Virus record (IMG/VR): IMGVR_UViG_2534681764_000020
Span: 1-4,324 of that record
Length of the DNA stretch: 4,324 nt
Strand: one strand, 5' to 3'
From: a virus
Lineage: Duplodnaviria > Heunggongvirae > Uroviricota > Caudoviricetes
Below the pieces are notes generated by a model that saw only the letters and a program-made list of their open reading frames with translations, was not told the DNA's origin and searched no databases. A program made the position numbers and the translations under genes. Below are positions 1-4,324 of this stretch, one piece after another (the stretch's first letter is position 1; every line of letters begins with the position of its first letter).

Positions 1-573
1 ATGTTTTGCGAAGAAAAAGTAGCTCAAATGGCTGCATACCTACTTCTTAAGCGAGGTGGGCGCATGGCATATCTGAAATTGATGAAGTTGCTCTATCTGT
101 CTAACCGCCAGTCGATTTTGAAGCATGGCAGGATGATCGGCGAAGATAGCCTTTACTCTATGAAATTTGGACCAGTCATGTCGAATACGCTGAACTTGAT
201 TCGCGGTAAGGCTGAAGGCATTGGTGACTACTGGTACAACTTGATAGAGACGAACGGGCATAATGTATCGTTGCGTTCAGATCCGAGGGAAATGGATGCA
301 GACGAGGTCTTTGATGAATTGAGTCGTGCAGATATCCGGATTTTAGATGAAATCTATTCTCGGTATGGGCATATGAACCGATTTGATCTCGCAAATATGA
401 CGCATTTAGAAAGCGTTTGTCCAGAGTGGCACGATCCTGGCAATTCTCGTAAGCCTATAGACCTGAAAGAAATGCTGATCAGTGAGGGTAAAAGCGAGGA
501 TGAGGCTAATCGCATAATTGGCAAAATGGAAGAATCTCAGAAACTTAAGGAATTTTCTTTGCAATTATCATGA
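1..573 (+). CDS. Panacea-domain (DUF4065) protein, PanA/SocA/GepA-like putative antitoxin; N-terminus may extend beyond the window
   Basis: The 190-aa ORF contains the segment LKLMKLLYL...GEDSLYSMKFGPVMSNTLNLIRG, which matches my recollection of the conserved Panacea core (LKLQKLLY...W.YGPV). Its stop codon overlaps the start of the next ORF (ATGA at 570-573). The ATG at position 1 coincides with the window edge, so the true start is uncertain. Confidence 0.72.
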   Translation: MFCEEKVAQMAAYLLLKRGGRMAYLKLMKLLYLSNRQSILKHGRMIGEDSLYSMKFGPVMSNTLNLIRGKAEGIGDYWYNLIETNGHNVSLRSDPREMDADEVFDELSRADIRILDEIYSRYGHMNRFDLANMTHLESVCPEWHDPGNSRKPIDLKEMLISEGKSEDEANRIIGKMEESQKLKEFSLQLS

Positions 574-989
574 CGGATTATCAGCCATACAGGAAAGGAA
601 CTGTGCTTGCCCCAACTGGGCCATGCAATCATCTTCATGTGATTTGTAATGATCCTGTTTATTACCCCGTTAACGATTGTTATTGTGTTTTAGTTGTTAA
701 TATTTCTAGTATCAAGGATGGTGTCCCCCACGATCCGTCTTGCGTCTTGAATTCTGGTGATCATCGCTTTATCAAGCATCCAAGTTATGTTGTTTACGCT
801 GAAGCTATAATTTGGCGAGTGGATAACATGGTTAGAAAGCAGCGATCGGGTGAGATTTCTGTTCATGATGATATGCCAGAAGCTACATTCAATAGAATTC
901 TGGACGGTTTTGATATCTCTGATGAAGTTACGCCAAAGAACCTTAAATTTAAAAATAAATATTGCGTATCATCTATTGATGATGAGTAA
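570..989 (+). CDS. hypothetical protein, candidate cognate toxin/effector of the Panacea-domain protein; fold unrecognised
   Basis: 139-aa ORF whose ATG overlaps the upstream stop by 4 bp (ATGA), suggesting translational coupling. There is no nearby Shine-Dalgarno sequence (AAGGAA lies about 18 nt upstream). The N-terminal half is Cys/His-rich (CNHLHVIC, CYC, SC...DH). The DNA looks AT-rich relative to the neighbouring operon. No family recognised from memory. Confidence 0.55.
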   Translation: MTDYQPYRKGTVLAPTGPCNHLHVICNDPVYYPVNDCYCVLVVNISSIKDGVPHDPSCVLNSGDHRFIKHPSYVVYAEAIIWRVDNMVRKQRSGEISVHDDMPEATFNRILDGFDISDEVTPKNLKFKNKYCVSSIDDE

Positions 990-1017
990 ACAACAGGAAT
1001 TGTTTCGGTATAACTTC

Positions 1018-1022
1018 AGGAG
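1018..1022 (+). promoter_or_regulatory. Shine-Dalgarno (AGGAG) for the 57-aa ORF
   Basis: AGGAG lies 6 nt upstream of the ATG at 1029. Confidence 0.6.
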
Positions 1023-1028
1023 TTTTCT

Positions 1029-1202
1029 ATGGAAGATCAAAAAGCAACCAAGCCACAGGTTAAGTTCGACACAATGAAAGCATTCGCAGGTATGGGTGCT
1101 GCTGTTGAAGTTCTGATGAAGGCTGCTCCTAATGCGTTCACTCACGCTACTGTCTCTGGTAAAGAGCAGCAGGGTAAGCTTCGTCGTCGCAAAGCAGCAT
1201 GA
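1029..1202 (+). CDS. small hypothetical protein (57 aa), not in the supplied ORF track
   Basis: Manual translation gives MEDQKATKPQVKFDTMKAFAGMGAAVEVLMKAAPNAFTHATVSGKEQQGKLRRRKAA, ending at TGA 1200-1202. It has a good RBS and is followed within 20 nt by a strong intrinsic terminator. Codon choice (GGT, GCT, CGT, GTT, TTC, CTG, AAA) resembles highly expressed enterobacterial genes. There is a hydrophobic/amphipathic core and a basic C-terminus. Confidence 0.5.
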   Translation: MEDQKATKPQVKFDTMKAFAGMGAAVEVLMKAAPNAFTHATVSGKEQQGKLRRRKAA

Positions 1203-1221
1203 TCATAGCTGGTGCTTTTTG

Positions 1222-1250
1222 AAAACCCGCCTTTAGGCGGGTTTTTTATT
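1222..1250. terminator. Rho-independent terminator at a convergent gene junction, probably bidirectional
   Basis: Perfect 10-bp inverted repeat AAAACCCGCC / GGCGGGTTTT with a 4-nt loop (TTTA), followed by TTTTTTATTT on the plus strand. It lies immediately 3' of both the plus-strand 57-aa ORF and the minus-strand gene ending at 1250. On the minus strand the trailing U-run is weaker (GGGUUUUC then A-rich). Confidence 0.82.
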
Positions 1251-1531
1251 TAGTGATGTTCTTTGCCCTTCTGTTTGCTTGTTCTGACCTGTTCCCACTC
1301 GATACGTCCTTCTTCTCGTCTTTTGTCTATGTATTCCGCAAGATCCTGAATATTGATGCAACGTTTTGCTTTTTGTGATGTGCCGATGCGATATGTTGGA
1401 ACGGGCAACTTACAAGCGTTTGCTTTTGCTTCTGCCGTGGATGGACTCATACCAAAGTACTTTTGGCTAACTGCTGAGAGTTCAATGTTTGGGGTATTGA
1501 ATTCAGCCATCAGTAAAAACAAGGTGTTCAT
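1250..1531 (-). CDS. PrtN/excisionase-like small DNA-binding protein (putative phage Xis or regulator)
   Basis: The ORF track gives 1250..1558, but that start is GTG with no RBS. The in-frame ATG at 1531 is preceded by GGAG with a 6-nt spacer and gives 93 aa. The segment IELSAVSQKYFGMSPSTAEAKANACKLPVPTYRIGTSQKAKRCINIQDLAEYIDKRREEG resembles PrtN/AlpA-type winged-helix proteins as I recall them. It is the last gene of the operon. Starts at 1543 or 1510 remain possible. Confidence 0.5.
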   Translation of the reverse strand: MNTLFLLMAEFNTPNIELSAVSQKYFGMSPSTAEAKANACKLPVPTYRIGTSQKAKRCINIQDLAEYIDKRREEGRIEWEQVRTSKQKGKEHH

Positions 1532-1567
1532 AATTTTCTCCATCAAAACCGGCTGCACCCGGGAAAA

Positions 1568-2140
1568 TCATAATTCTGTGCTGGTGGCAGGAATTAATTT
1601 CTGCCAGATAGCGGAAACATATTTTGCCTGATGACGGGCATCAGCCCGGGCGTTGTGCCGTTCGCCATCGAAAGGCATGTCCATTTTGGGGTCGAATCCG
1701 ATGGAACGCCCAAGCGTAACGATCGTGCGTACATCGTGGTCATTCCAGTATGCCCACGGGCAGATTTGTCCTGCTCGCTCATAAGCTCCACGTAAAATTA
1801 CGTTGTCGAAGGTGGCCCCGTTACCCCAGACTTTTAAATATTTCGTATTGTCTGCGTGCCGGTTAATGAAATGATTTAGTTCTGAGAGAGCATCGCTGAT
1901 CGACAAAGTATCATCAATGCAGATTGCAGCTCGTGCTTCAGGGCTTTGTTTCAACCACCACAGGATGGTATCGCCGTCAGGTGTAGCTCCTTGCTTCATA
2001 GCACTGTCTAGGCTGACAACCGCATAGAATTCTTGTCCGATGTCTCCGGTTTCGGGGGTGAAGAACACTGCGCCAATAGAAACGATCGGCGCATCCTTAT
2101 TTTTCCCCATCGTCTCAAGGTCGATCATTAAGTTGTTCAT
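1568..2140 (-). CDS. DEDDh-family (DnaQ-like) 3'-5' exonuclease, phage-type
   Basis: Motifs read directly from the translation: Exo I MIDLETMG (D, E), Exo II WGNGATFDN (D), Exo III H-NARADA (H...D). The track ORF (1568..2224) is over-extended: the ATG at 2140 is preceded by AGGAGGTG and overlaps the upstream stop as TGATG, giving 190 aa. Confidence 0.85.
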   Translation of the reverse strand: MNNLMIDLETMGKNKDAPIVSIGAVFFTPETGDIGQEFYAVVSLDSAMKQGATPDGDTILWWLKQSPEARAAICIDDTLSISDALSELNHFINRHADNTKYLKVWGNGATFDNVILRGAYERAGQICPWAYWNDHDVRTIVTLGRSIGFDPKMDMPFDGERHNARADARHQAKYVSAIWQKLIPATSTEL

Positions 2141-2421
2141 CACTTCACCTCCTGCGGCGGTTCTTGTATTGGCATCGACTGAGCTATATATAGCGGCTGA
2201 ACATACCAGCCCTTTGATAACCAACTGTCAGCAACGTTTTTACTTCTGGTTATTGCTGGAATACCCAAGCCATTGTCTGAATGCAGCCATGCCACCGGTT
2301 CTGCTTCCAGCGAGGCTAACGCTATTTCATAAGCTCGGCGCTCAATATTGTCTCGCACGTCCAAGCTGCCTATGCGCTCTTTGATTTCTTTAATCAGTTC
2401 TTTGTCGGTAAAAGTGGTCAT
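2140..2421 (-). CDS. hypothetical phage protein (93 aa)
   Basis: ORF with an AAGGAG RBS 6 nt upstream of the ATG at 2421. Its stop overlaps the exonuclease start. No family assigned confidently; contains EPVAW and PLY motifs of the sort seen in prophage proteins of unknown function. Confidence 0.6.
   Translation of the reverse strand: MTTFTDKELIKEIKERIGSLDVRDNIERRAYEIALASLEAEPVAWLHSDNGLGIPAITRSKNVADSWLSKGWYVQPLYIAQSMPIQEPPQEVK
2146..2153 (-). promoter_or_regulatory. Shine-Dalgarno (AGGAGGTG) for the exonuclease gene
   Basis: Reverse complement of 2146-2153 is AGGAGGTG, 5 nt upstream of the ATG at 2140 (minus strand). Confidence 0.65.
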
Positions 2422-2431
2422 GTGTTACTCC

Positions 2432-2695
2432 TTAACCCGCAGTGCTTTCAACTGACGAGGGGAACAAAATCTTTTCATCAAATCCGGCATTCATATCATG
2501 GACAGCAACACACCAATCCATTGACGAACGATTATCAAGAGCCTCCATGATTTCATCCATGCGGCGTAGGTCATACAGGTAAATATTTTTATCGCCAATG
2601 GTGTAAAAACCAATTTTTTTCGGTGATGGACAGCGATCAATAACGTCCTGTAATTCGTTCAACCATGCCTGTTCTTTTTTTGTCAAAGTTGCCAT
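2432..2695 (-). CDS. hypothetical phage protein (88 aa)
   Basis: Trimmed from track ORF 2432..2785 to the internal ATG at 2695 (MATLTKKEQAWLNEL...), which sits 1 nt after the upstream gene's stop and has an AAGGA motif upstream. The longer N-terminal extension would overlap the membrane-protein ORF. Confidence 0.5.
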   Translation of the reverse strand: MATLTKKEQAWLNELQDVIDRCPSPKKIGFYTIGDKNIYLYDLRRMDEIMEALDNRSSMDWCVAVHDMNAGFDEKILFPSSVESTAG

Positions 2696-2696
2696 A

Positions 2697-2915
2697 TCAG
2701 TTTTCCTTATACGGATTAATTTTATTGTGCAGTGTGTTGAACGACGCCCATACCACGTCGTTATACAATTCAATAACTGGCTCAATTATTTTCCCGATTG
2801 CCCAGACAAAAATTAGCGGGGATATCGGTATCATCAACACGATAAACAGAATGAGAAACAGGAATTCTGTCGTTCTACTCTTTCGCGGATATTCTTTTCT
2901 GAATAATGTCGGCAC
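2697..2915 (-). CDS. small single-pass membrane protein (72 aa), probable GTG start
   Basis: A basic N-terminus (RKEYPRKSRTTE) is followed by a roughly 24-residue hydrophobic segment (FLFLILFIVLMIPISPLIFVWAIG), consistent with an N-in transmembrane helix. The start codon at 2915..2913 is GTG, preceded by GGAGAG. AT-rich. There is no in-frame ATG that would keep the TM segment. Confidence 0.5.
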   Translation of the reverse strand: MPTLFRKEYPRKSRTTEFLFLILFIVLMIPISPLIFVWAIGKIIEPVIELYNDVVWASFNTLHNKINPYKEN

Positions 2916-2916
2916 A

Positions 2917-3249
2917 TCACTCTCCTTTGATGCGAATGCCAGCGACGCGTAGTGCGTGTTCTAAGTCAATCAGGCAAAGCCAACTGCCATTTTCTTTAGG
3001 TATCATGACATGTCGCTTATCAGCATTTATTGGGTGCCCATATCGAAGGTCGTAGCGAGTCGGTAATTGAACTTCCCTCGCTTCCAGTTCTGTAATGCGT
3101 TTGTTTTTAGCTTCTAGTTCATCCAGCAGCGCCAGCACAACCTGCGGTGTGACTTTCATACGAAATGCCAGCAATTTTTGTGGTGTGGCTACTATTTTTA
3201 TTGCTTCTGCCGCCTCACGCAGTGCCTGATAGTTAATTTTGGTTGTCAT
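2917..3249 (-). CDS. Ead/Ea22-like family phage protein
   Basis: 110 aa; N-terminal INYQALREAAEA and the central VLALLDELEAKNKRITELEAR coiled-coil segment match my recollection of Ead/Ea22-like prophage proteins. The start overlaps the upstream stop as ATGA, with a GAGGTG RBS. Confidence 0.6.
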   Translation of the reverse strand: MTTKINYQALREAAEAIKIVATPQKLLAFRMKVTPQVVLALLDELEAKNKRITELEAREVQLPTRYDLRYGHPINADKRHVMIPKENGSWLCLIDLEHALRVAGIRIKGE

Positions 3250-4124
3250 GCCACCACCTCTTCGAATTTCAACTCCAATTGATCACCCCAGATTTCACAT
3301 GACTCTGAACACGAGCCGGTATCGAATCGCCTGGCTTGCACCATCGCCTGATACAAATTTCTGTAGTCGCTGTCGGCATACATTCTGGCAATCCCGTCAA
3401 GACTCAGATGACCACGGTACATAACGTCTTTATCTGTCTTTCGGTGACCATCCCGGACGTGTTTACCTGTAACCAGCTCATTAAAAACTCTCATCAGACC
3501 AGGTTCGTCTTTACATGCAAGCCCCAGCTTTTGCGTGGACTTTTTGATGCAGAAAACACAGTTCCCGAGGTGCTCCGGGATTTGCAAATCAAAAGGTTGT
3601 TTATGCCACCACCGGATAACATCCGACTTATCAAAATCAGATAGCTCGGCAAGATACCGGACGCCTGATTTCGGTTTCAGCCTACGAGGTTCGTCTGCAC
3701 GAATACCCAGCCATGTGATGTAATTCCCTCGTCCGAAATGGTCATCGCAGTATTTTGTGAAGGGGGTGAGTTTTAATCTGTCAGTGCAGAACGCGCCGCC
3801 GATGTATGGCGTGCCATATTTTTTTACCATGTCCATAAACGGTTTAAGCACCGGCATTCGCGTCTGAATATCCTTTGGTTCCCATTCCGTATAACCATTT
3901 GGCTGCCCAAGCTCTGGATTTATATCGACCTGCAACACAGTTAGCGGTATGCCCCAGAACTTCACAACCTCCCGAATAAAGCGGTATGTCAGCGGATGTT
4001 CGCAACCGGTATCCATAAAGATGTAGCAGACGTTATTACCAGCCTTTCTTTGTTCTTCCATCAGGTGAACAAGATATGCAGATGTTCTCCCGCCAGAAAA
4101 ACTAACTACATGAGTTATGCACAT
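3246..4124 (-). CDS. phosphoadenosine phosphosulfate (PAPS) reductase family protein, PP-loop ATP pyrophosphatase superfamily
   Basis: 292 aa; an N-terminal PP-loop-like motif VVSFSGGRTS (a variant of SGGxDS), a conserved D-T-G segment and a C-terminal CxxC (CVFC). Its position in a prophage early operon next to an Ea22-like gene is common in enterobacterial prophages (from memory). Confidence 0.8.
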   Translation of the reverse strand: MCITHVVSFSGGRTSAYLVHLMEEQRKAGNNVCYIFMDTGCEHPLTYRFIREVVKFWGIPLTVLQVDINPELGQPNGYTEWEPKDIQTRMPVLKPFMDMVKKYGTPYIGGAFCTDRLKLTPFTKYCDDHFGRGNYITWLGIRADEPRRLKPKSGVRYLAELSDFDKSDVIRWWHKQPFDLQIPEHLGNCVFCIKKSTQKLGLACKDEPGLMRVFNELVTGKHVRDGHRKTDKDVMYRGHLSLDGIARMYADSDYRNLYQAMVQARRFDTGSCSESCEIWGDQLELKFEEVVA

Positions 4125-4321
4125 TTGCGTAATTCCGATAACTCGTTGAAGCGTGCCATAAACATCCCGTAGGCATGGCCCGGTGCCAGTGGAATCACGT
4201 TGAACATCTCTGTTGCCGGGATGCCTTCCAGTACAGGCCAGAAAGAGCCATCATCAAGCCCGAGATCGCGGCGTTCGGTTGCCAGCATGATGAGATCGGC
4301 ATATTTCACGGGTGTACTCAT
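4115..4321 (-). CDS. hypothetical protein (68 aa or longer), start possibly beyond the window edge
   Basis: The ORF overlaps the PAPS-reductase start by 10 nt. The reading frame is still open at the window boundary (codon 4322-4324 is sense), so the ATG at 4321 may be internal. Confidence 0.45.
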   Translation of the reverse strand: MSTPVKYADLIMLATERRDLGLDDGSFWPVLEGIPATEMFNVIPLAPGHAYGMFMARFNELSELRKCA

Positions 4322-4324
4322 AAC

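Follow-up and report, generated by a model that had tools for sequence, protein, structure and literature searches.

The modules of lambdoid phages have boundaries that coincide with those of genes, and their junctions carry short conserved sequences (PMC3233612, which cites Clark 2001 and Juhala 2000). In the sequenced phage mEp460 (NC_019716, gp25-gp35), a cI-like gene, a leader, a yfdP-like gene, DUF2303/YfdQ, YfdR, a set of variable small genes, an exonuclease and a PrtN-type excisionase follow one another, and the sequence continues with a hairpin, convergent cargo, attP and int. Here we describe a stretch of 4,324 nucleotides (nt) from a Caudoviricetes record (IMG/VR IMGVR_UViG_2534681764_000020, positions 1 to 4,324; the whole stretch is denoted the window), whose minus strand carries a tightly packed block of genes between positions 1250 and 4324 with the same layout. 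The stop/start junctions between these genes are joints at which related phages swap gene cassettes, and the region very probably represents the distal genes of a leftward early (pL-type) operon, in an mEp460-like lambdoid prophage residing in dusA.

The window differs at two positions, 1248 and 3393, from the genome of Escherichia coli CUPF06 (NZ_CP182174.1), where a lambda-like prophage of ~42 kb has it as its left arm, with a displaced 5' fragment of dusA just outside. The gene order of this locus (denoted L001), as annotated by the Prokaryotic Genome Annotation Pipeline (PGAP), is the dusA' fragment (L001 11643-11747), the convergent cargo, xis and further genes up to yfdR-yfdQ-yfdP, a cI-like gene and a cro-like gene. 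The other prophage end contains an intact dusA, a tyrosine integrase gene and dinI; the restored dusA and int are located at 8521-10744 of locus L008. The cI-like gene (XRE/S24 type) and the divergent cro-like gene lie upstream of the block, whose genes are on the strand of the cI-like gene. The block is read leftward, away from the cI-like repressor, and its distal end is the prophage edge beside the dusA' fragment. Upstream of the window it continues with the remainder of yfdR, followed by yfdQ and yfdP, towards the repressor gene. Integration thus separates xis from int by ~40 kb, and of the two only xis is part of the early-left block.

Segments 1016-2183 and 4117-4324 of the window are 96-97% identical to mEp460. 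The two differ in that mEp460 carries a 120-aa YfdS/SfV-like gene in place of the gene for a 292-aa protein related to 3'-phosphoadenosine 5'-phosphosulfate (PAPS) reductases, has its own small genes (encoding DUF551, a 63-aa protein, a longer Ead/Ea22 protein and two others), and has another cargo gene where the window has a Panacea-domain pair. We assign the block to the leftward early genes of a lambdoid phage because its layout is shared by the CUPF06 prophage and mEp460. An early-left lambdoid assignment had already been made in a first-pass annotation of the window; it is borne out by the synteny with mEp460, the cI-like repressor beside the block and the excisionase-type last gene. The exact gene combination of the window was found in 2-3 of 5,426 complete E. 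coli genomes, its pieces in >3,000. As an early-left region of a lambdoid phage that has been annotated before, the locus is ordinary and of a known kind.

To define the junctions, the seven stop/start intervals on the minus strand were recomputed numerically from the sequence and the list of open reading frames (ORFs; Table 1). All seven coordinates agreed exactly with those of the first-pass annotation, and five of the seven junctions fall within -10 to +1 nt. Three details of that annotation were revised. The "68-aa first gene" starting at 4321 begins at an internal methionine of yfdR, a 178-aa gene that is truncated at the end of the window; the product of the "88-aa" gene has 87 residues; and the "eight-gene" unit consists, within the window, of seven complete genes and the yfdR fragment, with at least yfdR, yfdQ and yfdP extending upstream. 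ORFs of 60 aa or longer account for 99% of the operon strand between 1250 and 4324, compared with 18% ± 10% (maximum 50%) in 300 shuffled sequences; the gene arrangement is therefore not due to chance. ORFs of up to 114 aa on the plus strand of the same interval were considered as antisense genes and rejected: they are unannotated in relatives, and the minus-strand genes have family support. In the same prophage, the genes of the rightward early region are packed as tightly, with gaps of -8, -44, -4, -1, -4, -4, +19, +7 and +13 nt. Tight packing is a property of phages in general and not special to this block.

The classical arrangement for termination-reinitiation is an overlap of 1-4 nt, and translational coupling may operate in the block. 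A reading in which the overlaps reflect compaction and recombination history only, the genes being translated independently, each with a Shine-Dalgarno sequence of its own and no functional coupling, draws on the ribosome-binding sites. Nine of the ten starts are preceded by a Shine-Dalgarno-like duplex of -6 to -11.6 kcal/mol (a duplex of -6 kcal/mol or stronger occurs at 6% of random positions), and the conserved junction sequences described below include these sites. An overlap need not mean coupling when nearly every gene has a site of its own. The exception is the PAPS-reductase-like gene, whose start lies 10 nt inside yfdR and has no usable Shine-Dalgarno sequence (-3.5 kcal/mol); in mEp460, the alternative gene starts at the same embedded ATG. 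These two observations, together with the overlap geometry, make a complete lack of coupling somewhat unlikely. Since nearly all other genes have their own Shine-Dalgarno sequence, termination-reinitiation is probably needed only for the PAPS-reductase-like gene, downstream of yfdR. Its translation most likely would depend on ribosomes that have read yfdR and terminate 10 nt beyond the ATG of the PAPS-reductase-like gene, and most of the other genes would be translated from their own Shine-Dalgarno sequences located in the end of the preceding gene.

The same junctions mark the places where related prophages diverge. Relatives at the dusA site keep yfdR, usually the PAPS-reductase-like gene, and the exonuclease-xis end; the genes between are replaced, and the replacement genes are always arranged head to tail with overlaps. 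Breakpoints were mapped from two loci (L006 and L007) and from search coordinates. Homology to the window ends at 2183, 2407/2421, 2699, 2909-2920, 3243 and 4117, each at most tens of nucleotides from a junction. One case lies in front of the exonuclease gene, where homology with both mEp460 and S115 stops at 2183. The stretch that follows in the direction of transcription comprises the last ~43 nt of the preceding gene, and within it CA[G/A]GAGGTGAAGT[G/A]ATG is near-invariant in six loci that have differing genes upstream of the exonuclease. The locus has modest value as a clean worked example of junction sequences that are ribosome-binding site, stop/start overlap and recombination joint at once. 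At the other end of the exchanged segment the downstream start codon is embedded in yfdR itself: in mEp460, the different 120-aa gene starts from this ATG, which precedes the yfdR stop by 10 nt, and 4117 is where homology stops. Some breakpoints are at odds with a strict coincidence of joints and junctions, as they fall inside the 93-aa gene and the Ead gene (near 2286-2324 and 3103), where they correspond to domain boundaries.

Table 1. Position and description of genes, junctions and other features of the window.
Feature	Position (nt)	Strand	Description
yfdR, C-terminal 69 codons	4115..4324	-	HD-domain 5'-deoxynucleotidase, 178 aa; runs to window-equivalent 4651
PAPS-reductase-family (PP-loop) protein, lambda NinC homologue, 292 aa	3246..4124	-	PF01507; phrog_424 at 2e-93
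Ead/Ea22-like protein, 110 aa	2917..3249	-	Pfam PF13935, 7.3e-12; phrog_250
DUF4014 small hydrophobic protein, 72 aa	2697..2915	-	GTG start; PF13198, 1.5e-25, full length; phrog_1832
Conserved phage protein, 87 aa	2432..2695	-	phrog_1714, 1.4e-50, full length
Stand-alone N-terminal module of DUF551/'Eaa' proteins, 93 aa	2140..2421	-	phrog_5117, phrog_60, phrog_660 (N-terminal parts)
DEDDh 3'-5' exonuclease (Rv2179c-like), 190 aa	1568..2140	-	PF16473, 3e-74; TGATG overlap upstream
PrtN-family protein, last gene, 93 aa	1250..1531	-	PF11112, 4.9e-23; phrog_1300 'excisionase', 1.3e-39
Junction yfdR / PAPS-reductase gene	4115-4124	-	-10 nt; yfdR stop 4115-4117, next ATG 4124
Junction PAPS-reductase gene / Ead	3246-3249	-	-4 nt, ATGA
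Junction Ead / DUF4014	2913-2919	-	+1 nt, TGA-T-GTG, GTG start
Junction DUF4014 / 87-aa gene	stop 2697-2699, ATG 2695	-	+1 nt
Junction 87-aa / 93-aa gene	2419-2434	-	+10 nt, TAAGGAGTAACACATG; TAAGGAG Shine-Dalgarno overlaps stop
Junction 93-aa gene / exonuclease	2138-2142	-	-1 nt, TGATG
Junction exonuclease / xis	1532-1567	-	+36 nt; GGAG 8 nt before ATG 1531
Cassette joint	4115..4124	-	downstream start codon embedded in last yfdR codons
Conserved boundary sequence before exonuclease	2140..2183	-	last ~43 nt of preceding gene; AGGAGGT Shine-Dalgarno and TGATG
GC-rich hairpin	1221..1246	.	3 nt past xis stop, 19 nt past stop of convergent 57-aa gene

A single repressor-controlled leftward transcript is the best-supported view of the block, as inferred from its layout and from scans for promoters and hairpins. 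The first-pass annotation had named internal promoters or terminators as features that would split the region into separate units. A consensus promoter scan found no sigma-70-like site on the minus strand of 1250-4324. The only strong hairpin of the block, at 1221-1246, lies at its end, with a folding energy of -18.1 kcal/mol on the minus strand (z -5.0) and -19.3 kcal/mol on the plus strand, where the terminator scan found 11 pairs followed by a T-run. It is probably a bidirectional terminator shared by the two convergent units, as judged from its position and fold. Three internal hairpins are weak (-14, -10.3 and -4.3 kcal/mol; z -2.3, -1.1 and 0) and lie inside coding sequence. A further observation concerns the segment between the putative toxin gene of the convergent cargo and this shared hairpin, which holds a 57-aa ORF (1029-1202, plus strand) with its own AGGAG; the ORF is 97% conserved in mEp460 (gp24) despite the different cargo there.

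Several observations weigh against a single unit. The promoter scan was insensitive, since at the presumed pL, too, no hexamer pair reached its threshold for a sigma-70 site, so that its negative result is weak evidence against internal promoters. Terminator-like hairpins number 9 in the window compared with 4.1 ± 2.1 in shuffled sequences, and one of them, at 2093-2069 in the exonuclease gene, has 9 pairs. On the minus strand, the stem at 1221-1246 is followed only by UUUUC, and termination there may be inefficient. Gaps of 65 and 127 nt upstream of yfdQ and yfdR could hold promoters. The scan's insensitivity and the excess of hairpins could be accommodated by several transcription units, in which the swapped-in small genes would be morons with their own promoters and terminators, expressed in the repressed prophage independently of pL; the variable cassette is indeed exchanged gene by gene, as morons are. 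The gaps of -10 to +10 nt around the variable genes, however, leave no room for intergenic promoters or terminators, the operon strand lacks a promoter-like site, the internal hairpins are weak and within coding sequence, and relatives show the same head-to-tail overlaps whatever the genes. We consider independent morons very unlikely. The hairpin at 2093-2069 was also judged unlikely to split the block, given its location inside coding sequence, its poor U-tract and its z score of -2.3.

The control region of the presumed single transcript lies outside the window. Three TTGC-N7-GCAA palindromes are found there (L001 18640-18677 and 19447-19461), two after the hairpin that ends the cI-like gene and one between the cI-like and cro-like genes; they are three of five matches in 28 kb, where 1.2 are expected. 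These palindromes sit where oL and oR are expected and are putative, operator-like sites. A leader of ~600 nt with no annotated gene precedes yfdP and contains a very stable hairpin of ~90 nt (L001 18040-18190, minus strand), ~10-160 nt upstream of that gene. The stretch 18040-18190 folds at -62 kcal/mol (z -4.4), and the leader is 90% identical in mEp460 over 760 nt. The leader could be an attenuator or antitermination element. An Rfam scan of L001 11000-20000 (E up to 1) yielded no known RNA family, with sub-threshold matches on the terminator hairpin only. The transcript would start near the operator-like palindromes just downstream of the cI-like gene, cross the structured leader and then yfdP, yfdQ and yfdR, and enter the window. 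There it would cover the NinC/PAPS-reductase-like gene, four small accessory genes, the DEDDh exonuclease gene and the PrtN-type excisionase gene before ending at the hairpin at 1221-1246.

The block contains well-supported families at both ends. The yfdR gene is annotated by PGAP at L001 16115-16651, and the PHROG matches are restricted to the C-terminal ends of deoxyribonucleoside 5'-monophosphate phosphatase profiles. YfdR of E. coli K-12 binds DnaA, and the overexpressed yfd cluster inhibits replication initiation (PMC4776307); by homology, the YfdR encoded here likely interferes with host replication. The 190-aa protein aligns with profile positions 1-177 of 177 of PF16473 (249 bits), carries DLE at residue 7 and HNARAD at residue 162, and matches the PDB entry 8kel ("Exodeoxyribonuclease") at 5e-11. 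By sequence it is a full-length member of the DEDDh 3'-5' exonuclease family with its catalytic residues kept. The last protein scores 81.5 bits against PF11112 (cut-off 24.2), and its mEp460 counterpart is annotated as an excisionase. This PrtN-family protein is probably the excisionase, and its gene is the last before the prophage end. As judged by their families, the exonuclease likely functions in the processing of DNA ends and the xis product in excision directionality.

The small genes between belong to conserved phage families as well. The DUF4014 protein has a hydrophobic stretch at residues ~17-41, with a maximum Kyte-Doolittle value of 2.96 over 19 residues. The 87-aa protein has 148 homologues in Enterobacterales, mostly of 87 aa, with identities down to ~55% and an invariant CPSP motif. 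Its AlphaFold2 (AF2) model has a predicted local distance difference test score (pLDDT) of 91.7. A fold search with this model gave no PDB match (best E 1.5) and a sole match to one uncharacterised viral protein. Homologues of the 93-aa protein number 659 and occur either stand-alone (86-93 aa) or fused to DUF551 (150-160 aa). No PDB sequence match was found for the 87-aa and 93-aa proteins at E up to 1, and no protein of the block scored above an NCBIfam cut-off. Lack of conservation of the small ORFs, which the first-pass annotation had named as a finding that would speak against it, is not what we see: all are members of conserved phage families as judged by Pfam, PHROG and homologue counts. 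By homology, the three or four remaining proteins of the block are likely accessory.

The gene that follows yfdR encodes the 292-aa protein. Over residues 2-292 it is 78.7% identical to the product of the Lambda imm21 gene flanked by ninB and ninD, and it belongs, by sequence, to the lambda NinC family (phrog_424). Full-length homologues with 34-50% identity are present in >300 Vibrio phage records. The protein has a PP-loop-type nucleotide-binding motif, SGGRTS, at residues 10-15, and two cysteine pairs, CVFC (residue 189) and CSESC (residue 272). Its match to PF01507 covers residues 5-72 only (37.1 bits, cut-off 22.5), and similarity to CysH-type proteins in Pfam and the PDB is limited to the first ~70 residues. 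The ECG[LI]H motif of CysH-type PAPS/adenosine 5'-phosphosulfate (APS) reductases was not found in it, and the NCBIfam CysH model scores it at 20 bits against a cut-off of 154. On these grounds we do not name the protein a sulfate-assimilation enzyme. The PADLOC profiles matched were SspD (1.5e-15, profile positions 2-125 of 277), DndC (~1e-3) and also BrxP. No Dnd or Ssp partner genes (cysteine desulfurase, DndD/E, SspB/C) are annotated in the locus. The 292-aa protein is a relative of DndC/SspD proteins rather than part of a Dnd or Ssp system.

These matches bear on the possibility that the slot between yfdR and the exonuclease gene is an anti-defence or host-takeover island, in which the NinC-like, 87-aa CPSP, DUF4014 and Ead/Ea22 proteins and the 93-aa module are immunity inhibitors selected for diversity. 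The content of the slot is hypervariable in otherwise conserved prophages, and the 292-aa protein resembles SspD, DndC and BrxP. In a podovirus of V. crassostreae, two phage-specific genes gave escape from Dnd, one of them a PAPS-Dam fusion (bioRxiv 10.1101/2021.05.05.442762), and a 2026 survey treats such PAPS-reductase genes as candidate anti-defence genes that cluster in variable anti-defence regions (NAR 2026 gkag862). The vibriophage protein assayed was, however, the fusion and not a stand-alone protein like the one encoded here, although the full-length homologues of the latter are also found in vibriophages. None of the small proteins had a PADLOC match, nor did YfdR, xis and the Panacea pair. 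The small ORFs (87, 93 and 72 aa) had been highlighted in the first-pass annotation as the kind of loci where anti-restriction functions are found; nothing connects them with such functions, as they have no PADLOC hits, and the searches of the PDB described above matched neither the 87-aa and 93-aa sequences nor the 87-aa fold. Lambda NinC is dispensable, and to our knowledge no function has been assigned to it. On balance, an island of immunity inhibitors is unlikely.

Within an ordinary early-left operon, the best anti-defence candidate would be the 292-aa NinC/PAPS-reductase-like protein rather than the small ORFs, and we offer it as a lead. Its family relationships suggest a DndC/SspD-like enzyme of the PP-loop type, which may act against defence based on phosphorothioates. 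A more far-reaching proposal, namely that the yfdR-exonuclease slot is a dedicated counter-defence locus in which the NinC-like protein neutralises Dnd/Ssp (possibly type 4 BREX) and the 87-aa CPSP protein is a new inhibitor of a host system, is distinctly unlikely; if true, such a slot would give lambda NinC a function. In a screen for anti-defence functions, it would be reasonable to include the NinC-like gene and the small genes next to it.

The convergent cargo at the prophage end is a gene pair on the plus strand of window positions 1-989. The first gene encodes a Panacea/SocA-domain protein (1-573), the second a 139-aa protein, and the two overlap by ATGA at 570-573. The AF2 model of the 139-aa protein (pLDDT 93.4) gave MazF/PemK toxins as all of its top 50 PDB matches (TM-scores 0.5/0.64, E ~1e-3), and residues H21, H23, C26, C58 and H65 are invariant. 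As the model suggests, the two proteins are probably a PanA-PanT type II toxin-antitoxin cargo; pairs of PanA with MazF-fold toxins have already been validated (PMC8832971). RefSeq/PGAP places the start of the 139-aa gene at GTG 603 (128 aa). Homologues conserve P6 and G10 upstream of this codon, and the overlap with the Panacea stop involves ATG 570, so the annotated gene probably begins too far downstream.

The locus can be compared with several known systems. Like the lambda pL operon (N ... exo-bet-gam ... xis-int), the block is leftward and early, lies beside the immunity repressor, contains small non-essential genes and has excision functions near att. It differs in that int is inside the operon in lambda and lies here across attP beside dusA, and in that a DEDDh 3'-5' exonuclease is present here instead of lambda Exo, and a PrtN-family xis. 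The annotation of the block and its Pfam/PHROG results show neither an N gene nor Red exo/bet/gam, no search having been aimed at N. The description of the block as a typical lambdoid early-left region thus holds for position and synteny and not for the canonical contents of lambda pL, as there is no Red system, N is unannotated and was not searched for, and int is elsewhere. The "ea" accessory regions of P22-like phages and HK620 presumably show a comparable boundary-sequence mosaicism. The CPS-53 (KpLE1) cluster yfdP-yfdQ-yfdR-yfdS-yfdT of E. coli K-12 shares yfdP, yfdQ and yfdR with the locus by PGAP names; in K-12, yfdR is followed by yfdS and yfdT, whereas here it is followed by the NinC/PAPS-reductase-like gene and other cassettes.

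The NinC-like gene itself is found in the leftward operon here (3246-4124) and in the rightward nin region in lambda (L009 2504-3376). Its start overlaps the preceding stop in both cases, and the position of the lambda gene between ninB and ninD is confirmed in Lambda imm21. The lambda gene differs in being part of the rightward (pR) operon, in sharing an ATGA overlap with ninB compared with the 10 nt shared with yfdR here, and in encoding the N-terminus MINVVSFSGG compared with MCITHVVSFSGG in the 292-aa protein; the first codons are fitted to a different upstream stop in each operon. A NinC-like gene can occupy either early operon, its junction tailored to the neighbour. Tight junctions and gene-boundary mosaicism are textbook traits of lambdoid phages, and with its pieces present in most E. 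coli genomes the locus matters little as it stands. Its joints are the same as the boundary-sequence mosaicism of the lambdoid phages HK97 and HK022, of which the block is one more example.

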